Assembly (NCBI GenBank): GCA_965242695.1
Contig: CBDESU010000002.1
Coordinates: 576,001 to 640,000 of the forward strand
Direction of reading: 5' to 3'
DNA from: Cenarchaeum sp.
GTDB lineage: Archaea; Thermoproteota; Nitrososphaeria; Nitrososphaerales; Nitrosopumilaceae
DNA length: 64,000 bases
The notes beneath the pieces were generated by a model, which saw nothing but the letters and a program-made list of their open reading frames with translations, was not told where the DNA came from and did no database searches. Positions 3,318-32,190 of the stretch are shown here, piece after piece (position 1 is the first letter of the stretch; each line of letters begins with the position of its first letter). The position numbers were made by a program, and so were the translations under genes.

Positions 3318-4524
3318 CCACCCCCACCTTTTTGCAGAGGCCGTCGAGGTGCTTGAGGTCTATGTCGAGGTAGTCGCCAAGATCAAGGGCCGTAATGGCC
3401 CCCCTTTCATGCGACGAGACGGCGAGCCTGATGAACTTTCGGCCCATTCGCGATATAAGAATGACCGGGTACTGCGGCCCGCCTTTTTCCTCTTCCTCTT
3501 CCTCTTCCTCTTCCTCGCCTTCGTCCTTGGGCTTTTGCCTGCGGCTGTGGTGCCCCGCCACGCCGTTGAGGACGCCGCCGTACGCGGTACGGTGCCTGCC
3601 GCCCGGCATGTCGGCGGCTCTGACCGCCGCAGCGTACCTGCTCACCTTGAACCTTCTAGCAAGATCCTTGACGATCTCGAACGGGTCGTCCGACTCCCCC
3701 TCAAGCCTCTTGCGCTCGGCGGCGAACTCGGCCCCCGGCATCAAGAAGGAGGCGGCAAAGCGGTTGCACCACATCTCCGCCCGCTTCCTGTCCGAGTCCA
3801 AGCGCGCCGTTCCGTGCTCGTCGCAGACGCCGCCCATGCCAAGCAGGATGTGGCCGTACTCGTGCAGCAGGGTAAAGGCCTTGGCCTGGTCAATGTCCTT
3901 TGAGTTGACCAGTATTGCGCGCGGGTCGGTGTCCGCCAGGGACAGCCCGCACACGCCTTCCGTGGCCAGCGGGTACTGGAACACGAATATGTTCAGCCCC
4001 TCGATCGCCCTGCGAAGCATCCCGTACATGTCACGAGACGATCCCCCGACAGGCCCGTCGAGGCTCCCCGCCACCGCAAGCCTGGCCCGCTCCGCGCGCG
4101 CCGTCTCCTCGGCGGAATCGTCCACGGTGACCCCCGCGGGGATGTCCGGCCCGGCGGCAATGCCGCGGGCGTCCATCATCTCCCCTGCGGCGGACTGCAT
4201 GTAGCGCACGCGCCTGACTGTGGGCAGGTCTCCGGCATCCAGCCTTTCCGGGGCGTTGCGCATCATCCTAAAGTCTGGCAGGTGCTCGCGTTCGGGCGGA
4301 ACCGTGCTGAGGAGCAGGTTCTCGGACATTTTTACGCACTTGGCCAAGGCCCTCACCATCGTGTACTCAATTTTGCCGGTGCTGGCCCAGTCGTCGACTC
4401 GCATCCTGTCGACCCCCAGCTTCCGCGCTATGGTGTCGTGATCCATGCCGCTGCTCTCGATGATCGACCTTACGACGAGCGGCTTGAGCTGCAGCCCAAT
4501 GCGGGGCGTGCGGGGAGCCATCAA
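3310..4524 (-). CDS. XRE-HTH + ImmA/IrrE Zn metallopeptidase (COG2856), copy 1
   Basis: N-terminal HTH, LPDFR, FTLLHEYGH, EMWCNRFAASFLMP; overlaps the DUF4411 gene. Confidence 0.9.
   Translation of the reverse strand: MMAPRTPRIGLQLKPLVVRSIIESSGMDHDTIARKLGVDRMRVDDWASTGKIEYTMVRALAKCVKMSENLLLSTVPPEREHLPDFRMMRNAPERLDAGDLPTVRRVRYMQSAAGEMMDARGIAAGPDIPAGVTVDDSAEETARAERARLAVAGSLDGPVGGSSRDMYGMLRRAIEGLNIFVFQYPLATEGVCGLSLADTDPRAILVNSKDIDQAKAFTLLHEYGHILLGMGGVCDEHGTARLDSDRKRAEMWCNRFAASFLMPGAEFAAERKRLEGESDDPFEIVKDLARRFKVSRYAAAVRAADMPGGRHRTAYGGVLNGVAGHHSRRQKPKDEGEEEEEEEEEEKGGPQYPVILISRMGRKFIRLAVSSHERGAITALDLGDYLDIDLKHLDGLCKKVGVGE
3488..3516. repeat. (TCTTCC)n microsatellite encoding poly-Glu
   Basis: tcctcttcctcttcc... 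visible within the ImmA C-terminus. Confidence 0.85.
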
Positions 4525-4798
4525 GGGCGTGCCGTTTCGCGCCTTTATGTCTCAAACGGATCACAGAATCGGGGGCGTCCCTGGCCTTTGGCGTCGACGG
4601 CGGGCCGATAGGGTGTGGGCGGCCCCCGTATGCGCTAGTGCGGCTCGGCTGGCAGGGCGCTTTTCAGGACAACGTGGCCGCCCCTGCCATTCTCGCGCAC
4701 ACCGCGCTCTCCCCCGCCCGCCCGCTGCGCGCGCCGGCGGGTCGCTCATTCCGGCGGCGTATGGATATTGCCCGCAGTCCGGCGCGCACTCAGGGCCG

Positions 4799-9756: not shown

Positions 9757-11395
9757 CTACGACGGGCGCCGCGCCTTGGCGTAGAACAGCTCTTGGTCGT
9801 GCCTGAGCGCCGCCCTCGGCGAGTCGCCGCCCCACCCGAAGCGGCCGAGCACCTCGAGGGTCTTCTCGAGTGCGATGCGGCCGTGCGACGTGATGCCGAG
9901 TATCGGGGCGATCTCCGCCGGCTCCAGCTCTATGCGGTCCTCGCGCGACATGCGCTCGTCGGAGAACCCGATCCGCCCGGGCGTCCGTATGTCGAGTACC
10001 CTGCCCCCCATTCCGGCAAGCGCCACCGAGACGGCGTACCTCTTGCCGGTTCTCGTCGTTAGGTTGGACGCAAACGCAAACACCTCGCTTACGGCGTAGA
10101 GCAGCCATATCGGCTCGAGGTACCTCGGACGCGGGAACGCGCCGGGCGGGTCGTCGACTATATCCTCCATGAGGGCCGCGTATTCCTTGAACTGCCCGTT
10201 GCGATCGAACCTCCATATGCTCATGTGGCCGAACGCATCGTGGCATGCCTCTGCGTATCCGTCCGTGGCGCGGGCCGAGCCGTACGGGCCGCCCCCCAGG
10301 TGGGGATAGTCGTACCCCCTGTAGGCCACGCTGCAGTCCGACACGGCCTCTGCCAGATCTTCCGGCGCGAAGTCGGAGCGGGGCGGACAGGGTTGTATGG
10401 TCACGACGCGGTGCCCGAGGCGCCTGATCTTTCCAAGGATGTCCCCGAGGCCGGCGGGCACATGATTGTGCTCGGGCAGGCGACGCGCAAACTGCATTGT
10501 AAAGACGTCATCGCCGCTCAAGGGACTCCACCCTCCCTGCCGTGCCTAGTGGTGCGGGGATCGCCGTTGGCATCGTGCGGGCGCGAAGGCGCCGCTCCGC
10601 CGCCTGCTGCATGCATCTCAGCGCACTGCTGATGCATGAGCGCATGCTGCTTGGTCGCGGCAGAGCCCACAAGCTCGCGCATGTCGGCGTGGTCGAATCG
10701 GTCTGTGCTCTCCACCTTGTGCCTTGGGCGGTGGTAGACGGAGCCACGCCGCAGGTGGCCCCTGCACGATTTCGGCCGTCTTTTTTGCAGATGATCGGGA
10801 CCTCGTCGAATTCTTCTACGTCTAGGACGACAAAGTGCCTACCGCGGCTGGTTATCCTGCGCGGCACAACATCCACCGATGGCTCGGCATACTCGTTCAC
10901 AAAACTTGCTACATCGTCGGGGCTGTAGCTGTCAAAGTTCCCCATGCTCATCCCCACAAGATCCGGCCTCTTGCCCGGCACCTCCTTGATTTCTATTATG
11001 ATCTTCCCGCCGCCATTGAGGTTGGCCATGGCCATGATTGTTCGGGTCAGCACGCACTTGAGTTCATTCCACGGCATGCTCTCCTTGAATTCCATGTCGC
11101 GGCGCTCCTTGTCTCCCGCCATGTCGGCAATTTTGTCAGTGCCGTCGACGCCGCTGCCGTGCTCGCCGATGTACAGCCTCGTCAGTCCGGCGAGGCCCTT
11201 CTCGATCAGGCTCTTGCCGCCGTCTAGGATGCGGCCCTCCGCTGTCCTTGCCTCCTCTTCTATGGAAGCGTCGTCAATGTCCAGCCTTTCGAGCGCCATC
11301 CGGGCGGCCTCTCTTATCGGCGCAGACGGGTCTACGTCGACGCGCCTCTCCCTTCCCTGCGCGACGAACGTGATCCTCATCTCTTCGGCCGCCAT
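9757..11395 (-). pseudogene. ubiquitin-like (DUF2604-type) + Schlafen/AlbA_2 fusion with C-terminal domain; two single-base deletions
   Basis: Ubl-like first ~85 aa; EFKES..MAMANLNGGGKIII..FVVLDVEEF..PIIC; frame restored at ~10775 gives LRRGSVYHR..VES..DMRELV; second shift at ~10521 joins ORF 9757-10521. Confidence 0.75.
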
Positions 11396-16268: not shown

Positions 16269-17081
16269 TCACCGAATAAGGGCGGCCGAGGCTGGAGATA
16301 CACGATCCCTGATCTGCGCAAGCACATCGCCTATGCCGTCCTGGTAGACCACCTCGACCTCCCACTTCTCAAGCCTTTCGGCGATGCCGCGTGACACCGA
16401 CCCTGCCAGCCCGGCGCCGTCCCTTGCCTCGGCGGCCCACATCATAAAGGATACCTCCTTCGTGTGCCATCTTTCAATCGATGCTATGTCGCCGATCCTT
16501 TTCTTGATTGTGTCTGTGGCAGACGCCGACCTGGCAGAGACCGCAAACAGCGCCACGAGCGGCACCTCGTTCCCTAGGAACACGTGCGGGAACCTGACCG
16601 CGGGCGGGCGGACGCTGAACTCGTACCGGCGCTTGTACGAGCCGTGGGCGAAGCCCATGGCCTTGATCCGCTCCCCCAGCAGCGCATCCGCGCGCCGGCT
16701 ACGGGCGTCTCCGTCGTCCGGCCGGGCCGGCAGGCCCACGTGAATCCCAAAGGTCCATTCCAAGGCATCGTGAGGCGTGTCGAACGGCATGAGGTTGTTG
16801 GGCCTCGTCACGAGCAGCGTATCCGGAAACTGGCCCTCCGATAGGGCGGCCAGGTAGCCGTCGCCGACCTTGACGGGCCCCTCTTCGGCCATGGACCGGA
16901 TGTCGGGCAGTGACGGCAGGCCGGTTCTGCGCCGCACTTCGTCCCAGTTGTCGGTAAACCGTCTGTATGCCTCCCCCCTTTTGGGGTCGTAGAGAATCAC
17001 GCCGACGGCAACCGGCTCCCGGTGTGCGCTCTGGGGGACGACCTTGATGGTCGAAAACTGGTAGTCGGGCATCGCAACCAT
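16269..17081 (-). CDS. DUF3037-domain protein, copy 2
   Basis: YQFSTIKVVPQSAHREPVAVGVILYDP; TGATG coupling to the upstream kinase. Confidence 0.8.
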   Translation of the reverse strand: MVAMPDYQFSTIKVVPQSAHREPVAVGVILYDPKRGEAYRRFTDNWDEVRRRTGLPSLPDIRSMAEEGPVKVGDGYLAALSEGQFPDTLLVTRPNNLMPFDTPHDALEWTFGIHVGLPARPDDGDARSRRADALLGERIKAMGFAHGSYKRRYEFSVRPPAVRFPHVFLGNEVPLVALFAVSARSASATDTIKKRIGDIASIERWHTKEVSFMMWAAEARDGAGLAGSVSRGIAERLEKWEVEVVYQDGIGDVLAQIRDRVSPASAALIR

Positions 17082-17875
17082 CACCGCAAGGCGGGCGCCC
17101 CCAGTATGGCTTTCTCCAAGGAGCGTCTCCTGAGCGCAAGCAGGACGGACTTGAGCAGCTCTGCATCTGCCCGCGCACCGGGGCCCAGCCCCGGCGGCAG
17201 GACGGCGAGAAACTCGTCCAGCCACTCCTCGAGGTGCGACTCGAATGCCCGCAAAAAGCGTTCAAAGTCGTCGGGCGCGACTATTCGATCCGTAATCAGG
17301 CAGAACTCATCGATGGGGGCCAAGGCCTCGTACGTCTCTTTCAGCGTGTCTGCCGTCCACTCCGCATCGCCAAAGGCGTGCCCAAAATCAAAGACGCGGT
17401 ACAAATAGCCGCTCCCAAATGCGCTGGGCACGACGGCCACGTTCTCGTCATGTCGGTCATTGTTTTGGATCATTGTGTCGAACCCCAAGATGTCCGGCAC
17501 GATGTCAAGGTTGTCCACCATCTCGGCGGTCAGACGTATGCCAATGTCGGCAAGGGACTTGACGGTGAAGAATGGCTCTATGAATTTTACGCCAAAGTGC
17601 GCCCCCGGTTCGGCCAGGTCGAGCCCTGCCTCTATCCTTACCGAGTTGAGCTGCGCTATCGGGCCCGCATCAACCGTGACTAAGACCGGCTCAAGGGAGG
17701 GCAGTCCAAACCGCTCTGCTAGGTGACCGCACAGCATCTCGTTGAGGACTGTATGGTTGTCCGCGGTACGGAACTTGACGAGGTAGTGCCTGCCGTCGTC
17801 GCCCATGATCTTCCAAGCGTCCGATACGCCCGTGCCGATGGGCGAGACGAGATGGGCGCACTTTATGGTGTTCAC
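17081..17875 (-). CDS. HipA-like (HipA_2) kinase
   Basis: G.S.A....DDGRHYLVKF, NEMLC, FDTMIQNNDRHDEN, VFDFGHAF; TATA CTTATAC upstream. Confidence 0.88.
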   Translation of the reverse strand: MNTIKCAHLVSPIGTGVSDAWKIMGDDGRHYLVKFRTADNHTVLNEMLCGHLAERFGLPSLEPVLVTVDAGPIAQLNSVRIEAGLDLAEPGAHFGVKFIEPFFTVKSLADIGIRLTAEMVDNLDIVPDILGFDTMIQNNDRHDENVAVVPSAFGSGYLYRVFDFGHAFGDAEWTADTLKETYEALAPIDEFCLITDRIVAPDDFERFLRAFESHLEEWLDEFLAVLPPGLGPGARADAELLKSVLLALRRRSLEKAILGAPALR

Positions 17876-18205
17876 GCCAAAGCCCCTGTGCCGCAGTATA
17901 AGTGCGTTTGGTGCGCCGAGGCGCGTCCCAGTCCGGCTTTCCGGGCGGAGCTGACGGCCCGACCCGCAGGCCGCAGCAGCCGGCGGCAAGTGGCACCGGA
18001 TCGGGGCCAGCAAATTAGGATCTGGGAGAGGCGGCCGGCACAGCGCACCGCCTCTTGTCTGCGCACGGCTACGCGGACCGGAGTCCGACATGCCGCGCGG
18101 CCAGGCGGAGGGGAGCGACGGGAACGCACTTTCGGCCACGAGCCCCGGCCGCAGGCCGCGCAGGCCGCCCGCAACGATTATTATCCAAGCCTTTCGCGGC
18201 CCTCC

Positions 18206-19441
18206 GTGGCCACGGTAGAGCAGAGCAGCCGCGTGGCCGCAGGCGCCGACCACGTGTCGGTCAGCGACGACCAGGTGGCGATCAGCGGCTTTACGACCGA
18301 GGTCCGCGAGATCGTAGAGTACTTTGGCAGCCTTAGCGAGTCGTCGTCGCTGGACCGCAAGCTCGAGGACGTCCTCCGGATGGGAGTCATGGCCATTACG
18401 GCCACGGGCACGGCGCAGAACGTCGGCCGCGTCGAAAAGGAGTTCGAGCTGCTAAAGATGGGCTTTGACCAAAAGATCGACTCGATCTTCGGGGAAAAGG
18501 GGCAGGTCGCCGAGATCATAGCCAAGCACTTTGGCGAGGACGGGCAGGTCGCCGAGATCATAGCCAAGCACTTTGGCGAGGACGGGCAGGTCGCCGAGAT
18601 CATAGCCAAGCACTTTGGCGAGGACGGAAAGCTGCTCGAAGAGCTGCTCAACCCCAACAAGGAGGACAGCCCGCTCGGCCTGCTCAAGGGCGACCTGCAC
18701 AGGACGCTCGGCGAGATCAGGGACAAGCTCGGCGAGCAGGAGGCGGCCAGGCAGATCGCCGGCAGGGGGACGCAGAAGGGCCGCGACTTCGAGGATCGCT
18801 GCGCCGGCGGCCTCGTGCTGGCAGCAAAGGCGAGCGGCGATGCCCTCGAGAGGACGGGCGACGAGGCGGGCCTGGCGGGCGCTAGCAAAAAGGGCGACTT
18901 TGTCGCCACGCTGGGCGGCAGCGGCGCAAGGGTCGTCTTCGAGATGAAGGACAAGGACAGCATCGGCATGACCGAGATCAGGAAAGAGCTAAAGGCGGCC
19001 ATGGACAACAGGGACGCCACGTACGGGGTGCTCGTAGCAAAGAAGAGGTCGTCGCTGCCCGACGGAGTGGGGTGGTTCAACGAGGACGCGGACGGGGCAA
19101 CGCTCGCATGCGCCGTAGAGGACGACGAGGGCAACGCCGTAATGAACGGCGAGATGGTGGTGATGGCGTACCGGTGGGCAAGGGCAAGGGCAGGAGCCAT
19201 CGCGGCGGAGGCTGCGGGCTCGGCGCCGGCCGAGGGCGCCGTCGACGTCCAGGCCATAGCACAGAAGGCCAGGGACATTGGCGAGCGCGTAGCGGGGCTG
19301 TCTAGGGCCAGGCGCGAGTGCACTACGATCGAAAAGTCGACCGGAAAGATCAGGGACATGGTCAAGGAGGCCGAGGACGACGCCGCGGCCGGCGTGGCCG
19401 CGATCATCGAGTCGCTCAATGGTGAGCGCAGCCCGCAGTAG
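18206..19441 (+). CDS. coiled-coil protein with PD-(D/E)xK nuclease-like domain (RmuC/DUF2130-like)
   Basis: KGRDFE..KKGDFV..VVFEMKD motif flanked by coiled coils. Confidence 0.7.
   Translation: MATVEQSSRVAAGADHVSVSDDQVAISGFTTEVREIVEYFGSLSESSSLDRKLEDVLRMGVMAITATGTAQNVGRVEKEFELLKMGFDQKIDSIFGEKGQVAEIIAKHFGEDGQVAEIIAKHFGEDGQVAEIIAKHFGEDGKLLEELLNPNKEDSPLGLLKGDLHRTLGEIRDKLGEQEAARQIAGRGTQKGRDFEDRCAGGLVLAAKASGDALERTGDEAGLAGASKKGDFVATLGGSGARVVFEMKDKDSIGMTEIRKELKAAMDNRDATYGVLVAKKRSSLPDGVGWFNEDADGATLACAVEDDEGNAVMNGEMVVMAYRWARARAGAIAAEAAGSAPAEGAVDVQAIAQKARDIGERVAGLSRARRECTTIEKSTGKIRDMVKEAEDDAAAGVAAIIESLNGERSPQ
18500..18627 (+). repeat. 3 perfect 42-bp tandem repeats (GQVAEIIAKHFGED)
   Basis: gggcaggtcgccgagatcatagccaagcactttggcgaggac at 18500, 18542, 18584. 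Confidence 0.95.
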
Positions 19442-21728: not shown

Positions 21729-22235
21729 ATGGTTCAACCGGTGGTTCATCCGACAGGGGGCCTTGACCTAGAGATGATCAGGGCCATTCCGCCCGGCGAT
21801 CGCGCGCAGTACTACGAGGCGGGCATACTCGCGCTGCTGTCGGCCAACGGCGAGCGCGGGCTCACCACGTCCGAGATTTGGCGGGCCACGGGCTTTCCAA
21901 AGAACGCGATGCTAAAGGCGCTCGACGTCCTCTTCCACCAGAGGAAGCTGCACAGGGTCAGCCATGGGCAGTTCCGGCTGTACTATGCCCAGCGCGAGGC
22001 GCCTGCTCCCTTTCGAGACATACGCTGGGGCGGGTCGACGGAGCGGAGGTACAACGCAAGGCGGGTCTCGAACGAAGGGGGCGACTATATCCGCATCGAG
22101 GAGAGGGAGACGGACGAGAACGGATTCGGGCGCGACGTGGGCGGCGTCCTCGTGCCGCTCTGCAAGGTCGGCGAGGTCGTCGACGCGGTGAGGGCCGCAT
22201 CCTCGCAGGAATACCCGGGGGATGCGGGCAGGTAG
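21729..22235 (+). CDS. winged-HTH protein with PC4/Whirly-like C-terminal domain
   Basis: ILALLSANGERGLTTSEIWRATGF HTH; YIRIEERE..VGGVLVP. Confidence 0.6.
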   Translation: MVQPVVHPTGGLDLEMIRAIPPGDRAQYYEAGILALLSANGERGLTTSEIWRATGFPKNAMLKALDVLFHQRKLHRVSHGQFRLYYAQREAPAPFRDIRWGGSTERRYNARRVSNEGGDYIRIEERETDENGFGRDVGGVLVPLCKVGEVVDAVRAASSQEYPGDAGR

Positions 22236-23237
22236 CGGCGGTAGCCGCCGGGCGCATCCGGGACGGGCCAGGGGCGGAAGGCCGGACAGTCGCCCCAGCC
22301 GCAGGACGCCGGCGAAGAGGTGGCGCATGCCGGGTTCGCGGCGGCGCTGGCGGGCGGCGCCCCAATCCAATATATCCCGGAACGCGCCGCCCCCCGCCAT
22401 GGCAATGCCGCCCGAGGTCGACCTCCGCCTTCCCGTCCTAGACCTGCTCGGCGACGGCGCGACCCGCACGATAGTGTGGGTCACCGACCGCATGGCAGAC
22501 CGCTTCGGCCTCGACGACGGGGAGCGCGGCGAGGTGCACGCCGTGTCCGGCCGCCCCAAGTTCGGCATGCGGGTGCGGCAGGCCGTCTCGCACCTGCGCA
22601 TCGCCGACTACCTTGCCAACTCGGAGACGGGGTCGTTTGCCATCACGCAGTCCGGCCGCACCGCCCTGGCTGCAAGGCCCGGGCGCATGACCAACGAGTT
22701 CCTCATGTCCCACTCCACGGCGTACCGCCAGCACAGGGACGCGCAGGCTGCCAGGAAGAGAAAGCTCGGCGGTGGGCCCGGAATGCCGGCCGAGACGGAG
22801 GGCATGGTCGCCATCCTCGACGTGCTCGGCGTCAAGGGGCAGGGAGGCCCCGAGGACCACGCGCGGCTGCACGAGGGGTGGCGCGACCTGCTCTCCGCAT
22901 CGCGGTACCTGCTCGAGGACAGCAAGGAGCTGCGCGGGCGCTACACCCTGTCGGCGTTCTCGGATACGATGTTCGTCACGGCCTCGGCGTCGGGGGCCGA
23001 CGGAACGGCCGCCGGGGCCGAGGACCTGCTGCTTGCGTTCAGCGACATTGCGTGGCGCCTCGTGGTCAGGAGCATCGAGAGCGACGTGCCCGTGCGCGGC
23101 TGCGTCTCGTACGGCAGGTACTACGAGGGCGCGCAAAACCTGTTCACGGGGCGCGCCGTGGACGAGGCTGCCCGCTACCACGCCCTGCCGCAGTGGATCG
23201 GCGTGTCGGCCGCGCCTAGCGCCAACCGCGCCCTGAG

Positions 23238-24772
23238 CAGTCAACCCAACTCTGGGCCTTACGGGGGCGGTTTAGGCTCGCGAATTTCCAGCATTCTGAC
23301 GCTCATGGAGAGCACGGCCGCTAGCGATATCCGCGGAACGTAGTCCGACGGGTGCCGCCAGAACACGGCATTGATCATGACCCACACGTTGCTGGCGAAC
23401 AGGGAGTAGATGAAGCAGAGAAACCGAGCGTTCGGCAGGGTGCTCGACGTCTTGTTCCGCCTGATCGACACCATCTTGAACCGCGTCTCGATCCCCCACC
23501 TCTTCTTGTAGTGGCGGGGCTTTTCCGATCGGTGGCTGACGGCGAACCCGATGAACCTCTCGTGCGGCTCGAGCTTCCTGCCCTTCCTCGAGCCGGCTGC
23601 GCCGTCCTCATCCCCGTCGTCCTCCTCGCCCTTCTTGCGCGGCTCGATGCGCATCCAGTACTTGGTCTCCCTGCCGTCCTCGCCCGTGATGGTCATGCGC
23701 ACGACGCCCGTCTTTTTCCCGGTCTCGGCAAACTTGGCGAGCGCCTTCTTGACCGCCGGGGTGTTGCGGCAGGGGGTGATCCAGCGGAACCTAGTCCGTA
23801 TCAACTCCTCTACGCCGGCCTGGTTGAAGAACTCCCTGTCGAGGAGCAGCCTGGCGCGGCTTATCCCCAGCGCCTTGATCTTGTCGGCCAGTATGGGGAT
23901 GAACCGCGCAAGGTTGGACAGGTCGTCGACGAGCAGGCATGCCACCGCGATCTGCACCCCCTTGTCGACGCACTGCAGCACGATGTACGCCTCAAACTGG
24001 GTCGTTCCGCGACTAGATTTCGACTTGACAAGCCTCCTCTCCTTTCTAAGGCGCCTGCGCGCCTCCCTGTTGATCTTGACCTGCGCCTCGGACACGCCAC
24101 GCGTGACCAGGCGCCCGCCGTCCCAGCGCTCCTCAACGTGTATGTCGACGGCAAAGGTGGGGGTGTCCGACAGCCGGCCGTTGCGCCGCAGCTCCTCGAT
24201 CGCTTCGCGCGCCTCGTCCTCGAGCACGCGCGCGCTGCGCTCGTCGTTGGCCGAGTTGATCTTGAGGCGCTGCCACTCGCAGCCGCTGGACCTGCCCCCC
24301 TCCTCCTTTGCCTTTATCTTGGACAGCTCGGCGCAGGTGGTACTCGATGCGTTGAAGAGGGACCCGTTGAGCATGTTCTTGTGGAACTCGGCGGCGCCGT
24401 ACTTTGCCCGCGAGTCGCCGGAAAAGTCCACGAACTGCTCCCCCTGGGTCATTTTGTCGGTCATCTTCTTGATGGCGAAGCCGGCCTTCCTGATCTGTCC
24501 AAACTTTTGCGATATCTTCTTGGTCGACTTTTTCGTCATGAACTTCTGCTGAGACTTTGTAAGATCCTTCTTTTTCCCGCTGCCGCCCTTGCTTGGCCCT
24601 TTTTTCTGCCCCATTCCGGGGGGCCGCCCGCGTGAGTAGTTATACGTCTTTCGTTTTCAGGTTATATTTTTATGAAGTATCGTTGATCAAGACGGTTTGG
24701 CGCGGGCACATATCTGACCAAAAAAGATCGATGGTCCTAGCCCACCGTCAACGCCCAGAGTTGGGTTGACTG
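23238..24772 (-). mobile_element. IS element, ISH3/IS4-like, 1535 bp
   Basis: Perfect 20-bp TIRs CAGTCAACCCAACTCTGGGC (23238-23257 and 24753-24772); 5-bp TSD CTGAG (23233-23237, 24773-24777). Confidence 0.95.
23259..24614 (-). CDS. DDE transposase (ISH3/IS4 superfamily)
   Basis: FAVD, LLLDREFF, YKKRWGIETRFK (YREK) motifs. Confidence 0.93.
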   Translation of the reverse strand: MGQKKGPSKGGSGKKKDLTKSQQKFMTKKSTKKISQKFGQIRKAGFAIKKMTDKMTQGEQFVDFSGDSRAKYGAAEFHKNMLNGSLFNASSTTCAELSKIKAKEEGGRSSGCEWQRLKINSANDERSARVLEDEAREAIEELRRNGRLSDTPTFAVDIHVEERWDGGRLVTRGVSEAQVKINREARRRLRKERRLVKSKSSRGTTQFEAYIVLQCVDKGVQIAVACLLVDDLSNLARFIPILADKIKALGISRARLLLDREFFNQAGVEELIRTRFRWITPCRNTPAVKKALAKFAETGKKTGVVRMTITGEDGRETKYWMRIEPRKKGEEDDGDEDGAAGSRKGRKLEPHERFIGFAVSHRSEKPRHYKKRWGIETRFKMVSIRRNKTSSTLPNARFLCFIYSLFASNVWVMINAVFWRHPSDYVPRISLAAVLSMSVRMLEIREPKPPP

Positions 24773-25100
24773 CTGAGCAGGTCAATCCGGCGCAGGTCCG
24801 ACCCGCGAAACCGCTTCTACACCAGGTACGACATTCCGCTGGGGAATTCGGTCGAGCGGGACGCGTGGGTCGTCAACTGGCCGCGGCAGTACGACGACGA
24901 GGAGCCGGGCGAGGCCATGGAGAGCGTCCTGGCCCGGATCGACGGCAAGCTCGACGGAATCACCGACGTCGATGCGGCCCTCAAGTGGCGCAACACGCGC
25001 AAGTTCTGCACCGACATGCTCGCCGAGTAGGGGGCGGGGGGCGGTGCTGAATCGGGCCCGCGCGGTGAGGGCGACGGGGCAGGGCCCGTCGGTGGGCACC

Positions 25101-25520
25101 ATGTGCATCTACGAGCCGAGGCCCGGCAGGGGCGGCGGCAAACGGGTACTGGTGACGCGGTACTACCCGAGGGGAGTCCGCCGGTCGCACTTTGACGAAT
25201 GGGTCAGGGAGCTGGCGCCGAGCGCGGGGCTGCTCGGGAAGTACAAGGCCGGCGCAATGGAGTGGGGGGACTTTGCCGCGGCGTTCCTGGCCGAGCTGCG
25301 CGGCAGCGGCGAGGCGCGGTCTGCCCTGCGGGGCCTGCGGCGCGCGGCGAGGCGCGGTGGAATCACGCTCCTGTGCTTCGAGCCGGACGGCGCCCCCTGC
25401 CACCGCCACATACTGCGCCGGCTGATCGAGGACCCGCGTCGGGCCTGGGCCCGCGCCCTCGAGCCCGGCTGCGCCGACTGGCGCGGGGCCGTCCCGAGGC
25501 GGGCGCCCGCCTCCCGCTAG
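25101..25520 (+). CDS. DUF488 family protein (YeaO-like)
   Basis: RVLVTRYYPRGV..DEWVRELAPS..ITLLCFE..CHRHIL. Confidence 0.88.
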   Translation: MCIYEPRPGRGGGKRVLVTRYYPRGVRRSHFDEWVRELAPSAGLLGKYKAGAMEWGDFAAAFLAELRGSGEARSALRGLRRAARRGGITLLCFEPDGAPCHRHILRRLIEDPRRAWARALEPGCADWRGAVPRRAPASR

Positions 25521-25641
25521 GGGGCGCTCGGGGCCAAATCGGCGGCGTGGCGATCTGGGGCGGGAGTGCATGCGGCCGGGGCCGCGATCGCGCCACATGG
25601 CAGGGCTTATACGCAGCCGGCTGCGCGCCAGTCGCGTGGCA

Positions 25642-26085
25642 ATGGCGGACAGGGCGCAGGAAGGAGGCGGCGGCATGCGCTGCGCCGCAGGCCCAAAGGC
25701 GGAGCTGCCCGAGATGCCGCCAAAGCTGCGCGAGCACATAGCCGTCCTAGAAGGCAGGGGCTACAGGGTCGAGGCGGTCGACAACGGCGAGATTGGCATC
25801 GTCATAAAGGACTACAAGATTCCCGGCCACATCTGGAGCAGGGAGTCGGCGGATCTCAGGCTCGCGACGGACTCGACGTACCCCGAGTCCAAGATCGGGG
25901 CGTTCTGGCTGTGCCCTCCCGTGTCGCGCAGGAACGGGGACGCCATAAGGGGGGCCGGCAGCACAAGGTGGGAGGGCAGGACATGGCAGACGTTCTGCTG
26001 GTATGTGGTGCACTGGGATCCCAGGTACGACAACCTGCTGACGCACCTGGACGTGGTCGACGACAGGATGCGGAGGGACGAGTAG
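25642..26085 (+). CDS. prokaryotic E2/UBC family E protein
   Basis: IVIKDYKIP..TYPES.I..FWL.P.V..GRTWQTFCW..WDPRYDNLLTHLD; TATA CTTATAC at ~25606; start may be 25714. Confidence 0.75.
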   Translation: MADRAQEGGGGMRCAAGPKAELPEMPPKLREHIAVLEGRGYRVEAVDNGEIGIVIKDYKIPGHIWSRESADLRLATDSTYPESKIGAFWLCPPVSRRNGDAIRGAGSTRWEGRTWQTFCWYVVHWDPRYDNLLTHLDVVDDRMRRDE

Positions 26086-26253
26086 GGGGCGGCGACGGCA
26101 GCCGAGGCCGCATCGCCGGCCGGTGCGCTGTGCGCAGGACTCTGCCGACCGCCGCACGCCTGCGCGCGACGCGGCATCCTAGCGGGAACCATGCGGCGCG
26201 TGCGGGTGCAGGCAGGGGGCGGAGGGGCCGGCCTCTACCCGGCCAAACTAGGC

Positions 26254-26463
26254 CTAGCCGCCCCCGTGCGCCACGATTCCGCGGCACGGCCCGTCAAGCA
26301 CTCCGAGCACCACAAGGACGGACATCGACACCACTAGGATGGTGAGCGGGGTGTCGCCTATGTAGAATCCCCCGGCCCCAAACCCCTGCAGAAGCAGTAT
26401 GGTGCACATGATGCAAAGGGCCGCCACGGCCAGAACCGTCCCATAGTTGGCGGACCAGTTCAT
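26254..26463 (-). CDS. small membrane protein
   Basis: Two TM segments. Confidence 0.45.
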   Translation of the reverse strand: MNWSANYGTVLAVAALCIMCTILLLQGFGAGGFYIGDTPLTILVVSMSVLVVLGVLDGPCRGIVAHGGG

Positions 26464-26674
26464 GCCCCGTAACAACCCCGCGGCCGCCGCCCTTCCCGAT
26501 CCTTCGCGGCCGGTGCGGAAGAAGGCGCTGCAGACATGCTGGCTGGCCGCGCAGGCGGCGGCAAATAAGCGCATCGCTCCGGCGGCGGGCCCCGCAAGAG
26601 GGGCGGCAGGTGCGCGTCCCCGCCCGCGCCCCTTCATGGGGCGCCCCCGGTCGGCCTCTAGGTAGCGCGGGCTG

Positions 26675-27853
26675 TCACGCGGCCATCCCCATCCTCTTGC
26701 AGAGTTCGTCAAGGTGCCCGATCTTGATGCCAAGATAGTCTAGCAGATCGCGCGTGGTGATGGCCTTCTTTTCATGCGACGAGACGGCAAGGCCGACGAA
26801 CTTCCGCCCAAGCCGCGACACAAGGGCGTCGAGGTGCCGTGGTCCGCCCCTTTCCACGGCCGCGGCCCGGCCGAGGCTGCACCTGCCGGCCACCCCGTCG
26901 AGGACGCCGCCGTACGCGGCCCCGTACCGGCCGCCCACCAGATCGGCGGCCCTGGACGCCGCGGCGTACCTGCCCGCCTTGAACCTTTTAGCAAGGCCCC
27001 CTACGACCTCTGACGGATCGCCCAAGAGTCCCTCGAGCCTGCCGCGCTCGGCGGCGAACGCGGCCTCGGGCATCAGGAACGAGGCGGCAAAGCGGTCGCA
27101 CCACGCCTCGACCCGCCCCTTGTCCGAGTCTGCGCGTACAGTGCCGTGCTCGTCGCAGACGCCGCCACGGCCGAGCATGATGTGGCCGTACTCGTGCAGC
27201 AGCGTAGAGGCCCGGGCAGTGGAATTCTCCCGGGAATTGACCAGTATGGCACACGGGCCGGGGCCGGCCATGGACAGCCCGCGCACGCCGTCCGTGCGCA
27301 GGGGGAGCTGGAAGACGAATATGTTTCGCTCCTCTATGGCGCCGCGAAGCGCCCGGTAGATGCCGCTTGGCGATCCCGCGACGGGCCCGTCGGGGTGCCC
27401 CGCCGCGCCAAGCCGGGCCCGCTCCGCGCGCGCCGCCCCGTCGGCGGGGGTAGCCACAGCGACTCCCGCCGGGATGTCCGGCCCGCGGGCAATGCCGCAG
27501 ACGTCCATCATCTCTTTTGCGGCCGACAGCATGTATCGCACGCGCCTGACAGCTGGCAGGTCGCGCGGGTCAAGCACCTCGGGCGCGCCGCGCATCATCC
27601 TGTAGTCGGGAAGGTGCTCGCGCTCTAGGGGAACAGTGCGGAGGAACAGGGTCTCCGACCGCCGTACGCACCGGGCCAGGGCCCTTACCTTTGCGTACTC
27701 GATCACGCCCGTGCGGACCCAGCCGTCGACCCGCGGCTTGTCGACCCTCAGCCTTTGCGCTATGGCGGCGTGGTCCATGCCGCTGCTCTCGACGATCGAC
27801 CGCACTACGGCCGGCTCGAGGCGCAGCACTATATGCGGCGTGCGGTAGCCCAT
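26675..27853 (-). CDS. XRE-HTH + ImmA/IrrE metallopeptidase, copy 2 (no PIN partner)
   Basis: TLLHEYGH, EAWCDRFAASFLMP; close paralog of 3310-4524. Confidence 0.9.
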   Translation of the reverse strand: MGYRTPHIVLRLEPAVVRSIVESSGMDHAAIAQRLRVDKPRVDGWVRTGVIEYAKVRALARCVRRSETLFLRTVPLEREHLPDYRMMRGAPEVLDPRDLPAVRRVRYMLSAAKEMMDVCGIARGPDIPAGVAVATPADGAARAERARLGAAGHPDGPVAGSPSGIYRALRGAIEERNIFVFQLPLRTDGVRGLSMAGPGPCAILVNSRENSTARASTLLHEYGHIMLGRGGVCDEHGTVRADSDKGRVEAWCDRFAASFLMPEAAFAAERGRLEGLLGDPSEVVGGLAKRFKAGRYAAASRAADLVGGRYGAAYGGVLDGVAGRCSLGRAAAVERGGPRHLDALVSRLGRKFVGLAVSSHEKKAITTRDLLDYLGIKIGHLDELCKRMGMAA

Positions 27854-27911
27854 TGTACGCATGCCGCTGCGCCCCCCTATATCCGAAGCGGATCGCGGGC
27901 CCCGGCGGCCG

Positions 27912-31191: not shown

Positions 31192-32190
31192 GTGGGCGGC
31201 AAAAAGGGGGAGGATGCGCCCGGCGGGGACGCCTTGATGTCTGCGACCGACAGGGCCTCCATGGAGATAGAAAAGGTCCTGCAGGAGGGCCAGGACCCGG
31301 CCGCCTTGCGGACCGGCCGGGCCGGCAAGGCCCTTGACGACCTCGACAAGGAGCTGGGGGCGGAAGAGCAGGACTCCGAAGTCCAAATCACGAGGGCCTA
31401 CATACGGCTCATCAAGGGCGAGTGGAGGGAGGGGCTTGCCATGTTCAACGGCCTTGCGCGGGCAGATCCCAGGATGGCCGATGCCCACGTGGGGAGGGGG
31501 GAGGCGCTGCTCGGGATGGGCAGGCACAAGAGGGCGCTTGCCGCGTTCAGCAGGGCGGTCCGGCTCGATCCCAGAATGGCAAAGGCCCACGCAGGGGTGG
31601 GCGAGGTGCTTCTCGAGGCCGGCCGCCCCAAGAGGGCGCTGCACGCGCTAGACAGGGCCGTGTCGCTTAACCCAAACGACCCGGGCATACACCGCAACCG
31701 CGGCATAGCGCTGCGCCGGATCGGACTCCCCAAGAGGGCGCTGCACGCGCTAGACAGGGCCGTGTCGCTGGATCCCGGCGTGTGGTCGTTCCACCTTGAG
31801 CGCGGCGAGGCCCTGCGGGATGCCGGGAGGCCCGCCGAGGCGCTCTCCGCGCTAGACAGGGCCGTGTCGCTGAACTCGCGCCAGGCCGAGGCGCACGCGG
31901 CGCGCGGCCGCATCCTCCTGGACCTGGGGCGCGACGCCGAGGCGCTCTCCGCGCTCGACACGGCGGGGCGGCTCGAGCCGAACATGGCCAGCGTCCACGT
32001 CTACCGCTGCGTCGTCCTGGCCAAGATGGGCCGCGTGGAAAAGGCCGCCGAGGCGCTTGACGAGGCCGGGCGGATCCAGCCGGACCACGAAGGGATCGCC
32101 GAGGCCCGGGACATGCTACGGGCGGCGGCCGGCGGGAAGCAGGAGGGAGCGCGGCGGGGGAAGAAGGGGCAGAACAGGCGGCGCGGCTAG
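31192..32190 (+). CDS. tetratricopeptide repeat protein
   Basis: 34-aa repeats (AL.ALDRAVSL.P..A....RG..L). Confidence 0.92.
   Translation: MGGKKGEDAPGGDALMSATDRASMEIEKVLQEGQDPAALRTGRAGKALDDLDKELGAEEQDSEVQITRAYIRLIKGEWREGLAMFNGLARADPRMADAHVGRGEALLGMGRHKRALAAFSRAVRLDPRMAKAHAGVGEVLLEAGRPKRALHALDRAVSLNPNDPGIHRNRGIALRRIGLPKRALHALDRAVSLDPGVWSFHLERGEALRDAGRPAEALSALDRAVSLNSRQAEAHAARGRILLDLGRDAEALSALDTAGRLEPNMASVHVYRCVVLAKMGRVEKAAEALDEAGRIQPDHEGIAEARDMLRAAAGGKQEGARRGKKGQNRRRG

Follow-up and report, generated by a model that had tools for sequence, protein, structure and literature searches.

A stand-alone archaeal BubB-like protein with a non-conserved nucleophile position may be a non-catalytic, UEV-like E2 variant

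Introduction

The Prok-E2_E family is the E2 component of the operons first called '6E/DUF6527', for which Ye, Gong, Chambers and Corbett introduced the name Bub (bioRxiv 10.1101/2024.11.21.623953). Bub was described there in 2024 as an oxyester pathway for ubiquitin-like proteins (Ubl) with a reportedly invariant E2 serine (bioRxiv 10.1101/2024.11.21.623953). The pathway is reported to use oxyesters, with an E1 that works through a tyrosine in its crossover loop and an E2 serine (Ser333 in Citrobacter) that occupies the position of the cysteine in other E2s (bioRxiv 10.1101/2024.11.21.623953). Ser333 is reported to be invariant in 107 BubAB and 400 BubBD proteins, and in type I systems His335 and Asp299, which flank the serine, are reported to be invariant as well; conjugation was abolished in an S333A/H335A mutant (bioRxiv 10.1101/2024.11.21.623953). 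In a word search of this preprint, its supplementary operon table aside, no BubB variants of orphan, pseudo or inactive status came up; among the matches listed, 'pseudo' belongs to organism names, and 'inactive' refers to the earlier prediction for the 6E E2 and to the E1 domain of Bil (bioRxiv 10.1101/2024.11.21.623953). A literature search on 'Prok-E2_E' returned no match, and among the matches listed BubAB or BubCD appeared only in two preprints of the Corbett laboratory. In eukaryotes, the UEV proteins (Mms2/Uev1a and the UEV domain of TSG101) have an E2 fold that is kept by selection without a required catalytic nucleophile.

Here, we analyse an E2-like gene in a stretch of 64,000 nucleotides, referred to as the window (C2:576001-640000), from a genome assembled into two contigs (3.89 Mb, 96% complete). 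The host is an archaeon, as indicated by its SSU rRNA, which scores 1450 bits on the archaeal model, and by its LSU rRNA, which also fits the archaeal model. We propose with moderate confidence that the E2-like protein is a stand-alone, non-catalytic, UEV-like variant of BubB.

Results

Reading frame and start codon

The E2-like gene (Table 1) encodes 147 aa followed by a stop codon, and its frame is open, with no internal stop. The G+C content of the window is 68%, so spurious open reading frames are plentiful; the frame ending at 26085 is real nonetheless. The source annotation starts the gene at 25570 (171 aa, P0302); the entries P0001 and P0302 both represent this gene, read from different start codons. 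In run X7, which represents a strain that is ~98% identical, 10 substitutions and 3 insertions are clustered at 25521-25583, and among the differences listed there is a single further one before 25766. The clustered differences include a 1-nt insertion at 25577, by which a frame starting at 25570 would be broken. The ATG at 25642 is a plausible true start of the gene. The putative TATA box in Table 1 is an AT-rich pentamer amid 68% G+C DNA, and its placement would fit an archaeal promoter followed by a short leader.

Table 1. Features of the E2-like locus and related loci of the same contig. Positions refer to the window unless preceded by C2.
Feature	Position	Strand	Basis or remark
Orphan BubB-like (Prok-E2_E) gene	25642..26085	+	ORF and Pfam match; alternative starts 25570, 25597, 25675
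Possible archaeal TATA box, TTATA	25607..25611	+	Read from the sequence; ~33 nt 5' of ATG 25642
E2 (diverged UBC/BubB) domain, residues 25-147	25714..26082	+	Pfam, pLDDT, Foldseek
Gly86 codon GGG, BubB Asp299 position	25897..25899	+	Alignment to Citrobacter BubB
Cys119 codon TGC, BubB nucleophile Ser333 position	25996..25998	+	Alignment to Citrobacter BubB
Tyr121 codon TAT, BubB His335 position	26002..26004	+	Alignment to Citrobacter BubB
Mrr_N gene	22192-23340	+	Upstream
IS element (DDE transposase)	23237..24771	-	Pfam DDE_Tnp_1; between Mrr_N and DUF488/E2
DUF488 (N3a subclade) protein	24972..25520	+	Pfam PF22751, E 2e-26; ~120 nt upstream of E2
HTH-ImmA/IrrE (Peptidase_M78) fusion	26675..27862	-	Pfam PF06114, E 2.1e-11; convergent, 590 bp downstream
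N-terminal 85 aa of Schlafen/AlbA_2 protein ('Ubl' of the earlier note)	11141..11395	-	Not part of the E2 feature
Canonical Bub operon A	C2:555.2-557.4 kb		45 kb upstream of the E2-like gene
Canonical Bub operon B	C2:101.5-103.7 kb		499 kb from the E2-like gene
Paralogue C	C2:545250-546284		55 kb upstream of the E2-like gene, 9 kb from operon A

Family and fold

The E2-like protein matches Pfam Prok-E2_E (PF14462) with an E value of 1.9e-15 and 57.1 bits against a cut-off of 25, well above any chance match, which bears out its description in the earlier note as a stand-alone Prok-E2_E protein. The match spans residues 35-144, corresponding to profile positions 8-121 of 123, and a genome-wide PF14462 search also recovers the gene at 25642-26085. 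The motifs quoted in that note exist in the protein, and the family consensus given there, WQxWSRH, is that of Citrobacter BubB, which reads YQRWSRH in the alignment to PDB sequences. When PDB sequences were searched with phmmer, Citrobacter BubB (9eav_D and 9eae_C, E 2.3e-5) provided the sole real matches.

The AlphaFold2 model of the protein, based on a 21-row alignment, has a mean pLDDT of 80.7, with values below 50 for residues 1-21, which are predicted to be disordered, and above 76 from residue 21 on. In a Foldseek search with this model, BubB (9eae_C) is the only match with E <= 0.001 (E 2.7e-7). The superposition on E2 structures, which the earlier note had proposed as a check, gives TM 0.71/0.81 and an rmsd of 1.5 A over 116 columns for 9eae_C, while the eukaryotic E2s (Cdc34 and UBE2N) trail weakly with TM 0.37-0.47. 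According to the model, the protein keeps the diverged UBC fold of BubB. A PADLOC scan of the protein returned 0 families.

Replacement of the active-site residues

All three residues of the type I BubB site are replaced in the E2-like protein, namely Asp299 by Gly86, Ser333 by Cys119 and His335 by Tyr121. The alignment of Cys119 with Ser333 agrees with the earlier note, which had placed a Cys at the predicted nucleophile position. Asp299, which lies in 'LDMF', aligns with Gly86 of IGAFW, and the 34-residue spacing to Ser333 confirms this assignment. Relative to the canonical paralogues, the codons are changed from AGC to TGC, from CAC to TAT and from GAC to GGG, and the Ser-to-Cys replacement at position 119 is a one-base change.

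The Cys of FWLCPP (residue 91) does not occupy an active-site position, as Citrobacter has a Tyr there. Position 91 is Cys in 11, His in 7 and Tyr in 1 of 19 sequences of the close clade described below.

Canonical Bub operons and a paralogue in the same genome

PF14462 matches the genome in four places, all of them on contig C2. Operon A contains a Multi_ubiq-type Ubl gene, whose stop overlaps the GTG start of BubB (GTGA), and a 457-aa JAB-E1 (P0136) directly after BubB. The order in operon B is fused Ubl-E2, JAB-E1 and then a TIR-domain gene. In the canonical operons, the E1 carries a crossover-loop tyrosine, Tyr372, that is shared by 43 of 43 aligned relatives and corresponds to the Citrobacter Tyr in ERGYITG. 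The E2 domains of both operons are ~50% identical to the E2-like protein and have the C-terminal WDPxxDxLLT(Y/H)LxVVxDR helix in common with it; however, they keep a D...FSWH site, whereas the E2-like gene and paralogue C have G...FCWY. They also differ from the E2-like gene in having a JAB-E1 directly after the E2, and the Ubl, which is a separate gene in operon A and fused in operon B, is absent beside the E2-like gene.

The earlier note saw neither an E1 nor a JAB gene in the window; accordingly, of the genome's 5 ThiF, 3 Prok-JAB and 1 Multi_ubiq matches, not one lies in C2:576001-640000. A tblastn search with three BubCD proteins (E <= 10) found operons A and B only, with no E1 remnant beside the E2-like gene or paralogue C, and the genome-wide ThiF/JAB check places E1 genes at operons A and B, on the same contig as the E2-like gene. 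DUF6527 (BubE, PF20137) has 0 matches in the whole 96%-complete genome. Compared to a type I Bub operon, the E2-like gene has neither a Multi_ubiq-type Ubl fused or upstream nor an adjacent JAB-E1. The view of the gene as a 'dispersed' offshoot of a Ubl conjugation pathway fits the two Bub operons and the Ubl-fused paralogue at the distances given in Table 1.

Paralogue C is 81% identical to the E2-like protein. Its N-terminal region is 58% identical to that of P0004, a metagenome protein with a precomputed Multi_ubiq match, and the Ubl tail RFRTVNxAxFG, found in operon B and P0004, is degenerate in paralogue C. The DNA similarity between the E2-like gene and paralogue C is confined to 25697-26083 (89.9% over 387 nt). 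Because this similarity is limited to the E2 domain, the E2-like gene is a derivative of a Ubl-E2 (BubAB) gene that is truncated at its 5' end and retains only the E2.

Relatives in other genomes

The wide family has 117 representatives at E <= 0.001 in a library of 1.84 billion representatives, and the entire close clade falls in one 50% cluster (P0006) of this library. A word-indexed search yielded 17 proteins 74-97% identical to the E2-like protein among 49 candidates. Locus searches found one distant locus in genome contigs (L021, 33% identity), one in metagenome contigs (L020, 29%) and 0 relatives in viral contigs. Among the family-sampled genomes, 11 of 401 match at E <= 1e-10, with clade-level matches only in G000 and G248, and three other genomes of the same genus had none; any match was found in 3 of 201 order-sampled genomes.

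The variant in G248, a genome of the same genus, is 74% identical to the E2-like protein and has Phe and Asp at positions 119 and 121, a type identical to that of P0300. It sits downstream of the same Mrr_N gene as the E2-like gene, and it is also an orphan, with no E1 within +-10 kb and with AAA ATPases and an IS66 transposase as neighbours. G248 has a canonical BubB as well, followed directly by BubCD (60% identical to P0136), ~670 kb from the variant. The variant and canonical BubB/BubCD therefore occur together in 2 of the 2 whole genomes that carry the variant (G000 and G248).

An E1 (P0205) and a variant E2 (P0010) are both on contigs of 7626 nt, and P0251 and P0283 are both on contigs of 18896 nt. 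The crossover loop is broken and the catalytic Tyr is missing in P0205 and P0251. Further coincidences of contig size, at 6821 and 10147 nt, involve E1s with the loop intact. We take the four equal contig sizes (6821, 7626, 10147 and 18896 nt) only as a hint that variant E2s and E1s are co-located. If P0205 and P0251 are truly co-located with variant E2s, the whole module would have lost conjugation while the E2 domain was kept.

Variation of the site across the family and the clade

The family alignment was built with jackhmmer and has 133 rows, made up of the 117 representatives and homologues from the word search. At the three site columns, Asp is present in 108, Ser in 106 and His in 104 of these rows. 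Of the 109 rows from outside the clade with a residue at the nucleophile column, Ser accounts for 106 and Cys for the remaining 3. These three, P0090 (CWQ), P0103 (CWQ) and P0077 (CWS), resemble the E2-like protein in being stand-alone Prok-E2_E proteins (124-127 aa) that have Cys in place of Ser333 and lack the His two residues later, but they are only 25-29% identical to it and fall outside the clade.

The clade alignment contains 19 sequences and 122 columns, with identities of 66-97% to the E2-like protein. All 19 sequences have Gly86, 15 have Cys and 4 have Phe at position 119, and position 121, with 7 residue types, ranks first of the 122 columns by entropy. On the other hand, 58 of the 122 columns are invariant, including nearly the whole C-terminal helix, and the flanking motif TWQTF-W is common to the whole clade. 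Opening ten 90% clusters gave 66 clade entries, one of which (P0303) is a fragment lacking the site; in the other 65, Phe occupies the nucleophile position 32 times, Cys 30 times and His 3 times. These are counts of sequences, not of independent events, and P0001 and P0302, the same gene, are both in the set. The three His members belong to one 90%-identity cluster, whose representative P0006 has Cys. A maximum-likelihood tree calculated from 27 rows groups the clade with a support of 100/99 and implies no fewer than 4 changes of the S/C/F state, of which 3 fall within the clade; for example, P0007 (Cys) stands beside P0018 (Phe) with a support of 100/98. Exchange with Phe and His among near-identical, otherwise conserved proteins is not how a required nucleophile behaves.

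Purifying selection on the E2-like gene

The dN/dS of the E2-like gene against paralogue C is 0.20-0.22 (Nei-Gojobori, 123-124 codons; dS 0.27), and against the Phe-type G248 copy it is 0.33 for the E2-like gene and 0.31 for paralogue C (Nei-Gojobori). The values of 0.20-0.33 indicate that the gene is kept by purifying selection, and the 'decayed' pathway suggested by the earlier note is not what these values describe. The protein thus combines an E2 fold under selection with a nucleophile position that is not conserved, as in a pseudo-E2.

These values also bear on the idea that the gene is a functionless relic, a 5'-truncated BubAB fragment drifting to loss in a variable, IS-rich island. The Ubl part is gone, with the similarity to paralogue C beginning at 25697, an IS element lies 870 bp upstream, other transposases border paralogue C and the G248 copy, the active-site residues have been lost and no partner gene is nearby; the E1s with a broken loop (P0205 and P0251), possibly co-located with variant E2s, would point the same way. 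Set against this are, in addition to the dN/dS, the 58 invariant columns among 19 sequences, the frame without an internal stop, and the recurrence of intact E2-only forms (123-164 aa) in dozens of assemblies and, in a second species, at the syntenic position. We therefore regard a relic as quite unlikely.

The variation of the nucleophile position has to be weighed together with selection when considering the suggestion of the earlier note that the Cys implies thioester chemistry. In an active thioester E2, Cys119 would take the Ubl from the Tyr-oxyester of BubCD and pass it to targets, and Asp and His would be dispensable after the Ser-to-Cys replacement. Such a function would fit the placement of Cys119 at the Ser333 position, which is the catalytic Cys position of classical E2s, the single base change that produces it, the retention of TWQTF-W throughout the clade, the two canonical E1 genes on the same contig, and the pairing of Cys with loss of His in the unrelated P0090, P0103 and P0077. 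However, Phe is as common as Cys among the 65 entries, with His in a further 3, at least 3 switches between Cys and Phe are needed on the tree, and the syntenic G248 copy has Phe and yet a dN/dS of 0.33. Moreover, no cognate Ubl or E1 lies beside the gene, and the canonical operons have a Ser-type E2 of their own. With Gly86 in all 19 clade sequences and position 121 the most variable, the suggestion is not supported, and we consider an active thioester E2 unlikely.

Genomic neighbourhood

The surroundings of the E2-like gene are a variable, defence-like island. Two copies of the upstream IS element on contig C1 are 99.7% and 98.8% identical over ~1535 nt, and the IS flanks abut in G248 (L033 3633-4528 and 4521-4792). 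The abutting flanks indicate that the IS at 23237-24771 is a recent insertion, with which the 99.7% identity of the C1 copy agrees. DUF488 is absent beside the E2 in G248, where a counterpart is found only for window 24773-25044. The ImmA/IrrE fusion has a paralogue at window 3318-4562 with 73% DNA identity. The X7 contig departs from the window sequence after 26094, right past the E2, and the adjacency of the E2 and the ImmA/IrrE fusion is thus not conserved. Among the loci compared (G248, run X7 and paralogue C), no conserved partner gene was found beside the E2.

Other features of the surroundings were also recorded. A possible small two-helix membrane ORF was seen downstream of the E2 by hand reading of the translation, and the convergent genes downstream also include a hydrolase. 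Genes further upstream encode HipA_2 together with DUF3037, an AAA ATPase, a metallopeptidase and a Schlafen/AlbA_2 protein.

The earlier note had named a Ubl at 11140-11395 as a partner for the E2. This segment is an internal domain of the AlbA_2 protein; it does not belong to the Multi_ubiq type found in Bub systems, and no result links it with the E2. Its match to DUF2604 is sub-threshold (E 0.095), and its single-sequence fold has a pLDDT of 54, with an order of strands and helices that would be compatible with a beta-grasp.

CapP is a peptidase of the ImmA/IrrE type. A pair of CapH and CapP is reported to accompany 31% of Bub operons (bioRxiv 10.1101/2024.11.21.623953). The E2 might accordingly belong to a local module, either working with DUF488 or being controlled by the ImmA/IrrE-HTH protein in the way that CapH and CapP control Bub operons, given that an HTH-Peptidase_M78 gene lies downstream, and that DUF488 is encoded on the same strand upstream, an arrangement of DUF488 and E2 that runs X4 and X7 share at 98-99% identity. 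Nevertheless, the ImmA gene is convergent with the E2 rather than placed upstream in divergent orientation, the X7 contig parts from the window sequence at 26094, and neither DUF488 nor ImmA is found beside the E2 in G248 or beside paralogue C, which makes a local module very unlikely.

Discussion

We favour, with the moderate confidence stated above, a BubB variant that would act by binding rather than by carrying a Ubl, in trans on the canonical Bub machinery of the same contig. The variant originated from a Ubl-E2 fusion gene (BubAB), the Ubl having been kept in paralogue C and P0004 and lost here. It could assist the active E2, BubB, as its cofactor or adaptor, or it could act as a decoy or brake by occupying the JAB-E1 (BubCD) or the Ubl (BubA). 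Cys119 would be a leftover of a likely path from Ser through Cys to Phe (AGC, TGC, TTC), not a working nucleophile.

Two points speak against a non-catalytic protein. A thiol needs no Asp or His helper, and Cys119 is present here; in addition, an active Cys lineage could have given rise to the Phe and His members as dead side branches. Along these lines, the Cys members could be 'revertants' of an oxyester E2 from Ser to Cys that take part in a mixed oxyester/thioester relay via a BubCD encoded elsewhere, with the Phe and His members as later losses and the three unrelated Cys lineages as signs of a recurrent switch; we judge this to be rather unlikely. Co-folding of the E1 domain of operon A (P0136 residues 165-457) with E2 residues 22-147, run without controls, gave a score of 0.00 and bears neither way.

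The clade breaks the rule of the invariant Ser, being E2-only and conserved, with its site dismantled, alongside canonical Bub operons in archaea. The genome also shows that archaea have type I-like Bub operons without BubE. Binding of the variant to BubCD, BubA or BubB would make it the first pseudo-E2 regulator in a prokaryotic Ubl pathway, in parallel to the eukaryotic UEVs, and such a pseudo-E2 would give a handle on the tuning of Bub activity. For annotation, the lesson is that a Cys at the 'right' position does not amount to thioester chemistry unless the relatives are checked.

Compared to known systems, the E2-like protein shares with Citrobacter BubB (9eae/9eav) the Pfam family and, in the model, the diverged UBC fold without the C-terminal helix pair, and like BubAB it derives from a Ubl-E2 fusion, which paralogue C and P0004 keep. 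It differs from Citrobacter BubB in its Gly/Cys/Tyr site, which is not conserved in the clade, in the absence of a fused Ubl and of an adjacent JAB-E1, in its archaeal host and in the absence of DUF6527 from the genome. A functional analogy may be drawn with the UEVs, as in both cases an E2 fold is selected without a required nucleophile, and non-covalent binding beside an active E2 is presumed. The variant differs from the UEVs, however, in having arisen independently, from an E2 of the oxyester (Ser) and not of the thioester (Cys) kind, and in the Cys that many members of its clade, this one included, carry at the old site.

Canonical Bub operons in the source genome

The source genome of the window (G000) carries two canonical operons of the type I-like Bub ubiquitin-like conjugation system, both in an archaeal host. 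Operon B is followed by a gene with a TIR_2 domain, and operon A is followed by two paralogous genes that have no Pfam match. A search of the whole G000 genome for DUF6527/BubE gave no match. All four Prok-E2_E matches of G000 and four of its five ThiF matches are located on contig C2, the contig of the window. Genomes of the genus come in two size classes, a smaller one of 1.8 and 2.0 Mb (G136 and G214) and a larger one of 3.2-3.9 Mb (G233, G248, and G000), and most genomes of the family are 1.4-1.8 Mb.

Features of the window and of the source genome
Feature	Location	Remarks
IS element with DDE transposase	window 23237-24771	copies on contig C1
Operon A (L010), canonical type I-like Bub operon	G000:C2:555232-557400	Ubl, Ser/His BubB, JAB-E1
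Operon B (L011), canonical type I-like Bub operon	G000:C2:101546-103700	Ubl, Ser/His BubB, JAB-E1
HTH-ImmA/IrrE (Peptidase_M78) paralogue pair	window 26682-27893 and 3318-4562	73% DNA identity between them
HipA_2 kinase-like gene and adjoining weak DUF3037 match	window 16272-18451	both on the minus strand

Surroundings of the E2 gene

The copies of the window IS element on contig C1 are 99.7% and 98.8% identical to it across ~1535 nt. The congeneric genome G248 lacks the element at the syntenic position, so the insertion is recent. Weaker copies of the HTH-ImmA/IrrE paralogues are also present on contig C1. Window 31400-32000 has matches of 65-80% identity in dozens of places on this contig, at 1.10-1.24 Mb and at 0.65 Mb; it resembles a coding module that recurs in a large family of repeat proteins. 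The HipA_2 and DUF3037 neighbours are possibly a toxin-antitoxin-like pair. In 'sponge metagenome' runs of two studies, a fraction of 0.41-0.82 of the words sampled from window 24900-26700 is present, and contigs from two of these runs cover the DUF488-E2 stretch at ~98-99% identity.

BubCD-like E1 proteins and Cys-type E2 proteins

Two BubCD-like E1 proteins, P0205 and P0251, share 55-57% identity with P0136, the JAB-E1 of operon A, and have either a deletion or Arg/Gly-rich sequence in place of the crossover loop with its catalytic Tyr, a loss that could be due to frameshift or decay. The contigs of their clusters are exactly as long as those of certain clusters of variant E2 proteins, the close relatives of the window E2 in which the Asp/Ser/His site is replaced. 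Outside this clade, the Prok-E2_E representatives P0090, P0103, and P0077 are stand-alone proteins of 124-127 aa that have Cys at the position of BubB Ser333 and Gln or Ser in place of the His. They may form an independent Cys-type lineage.
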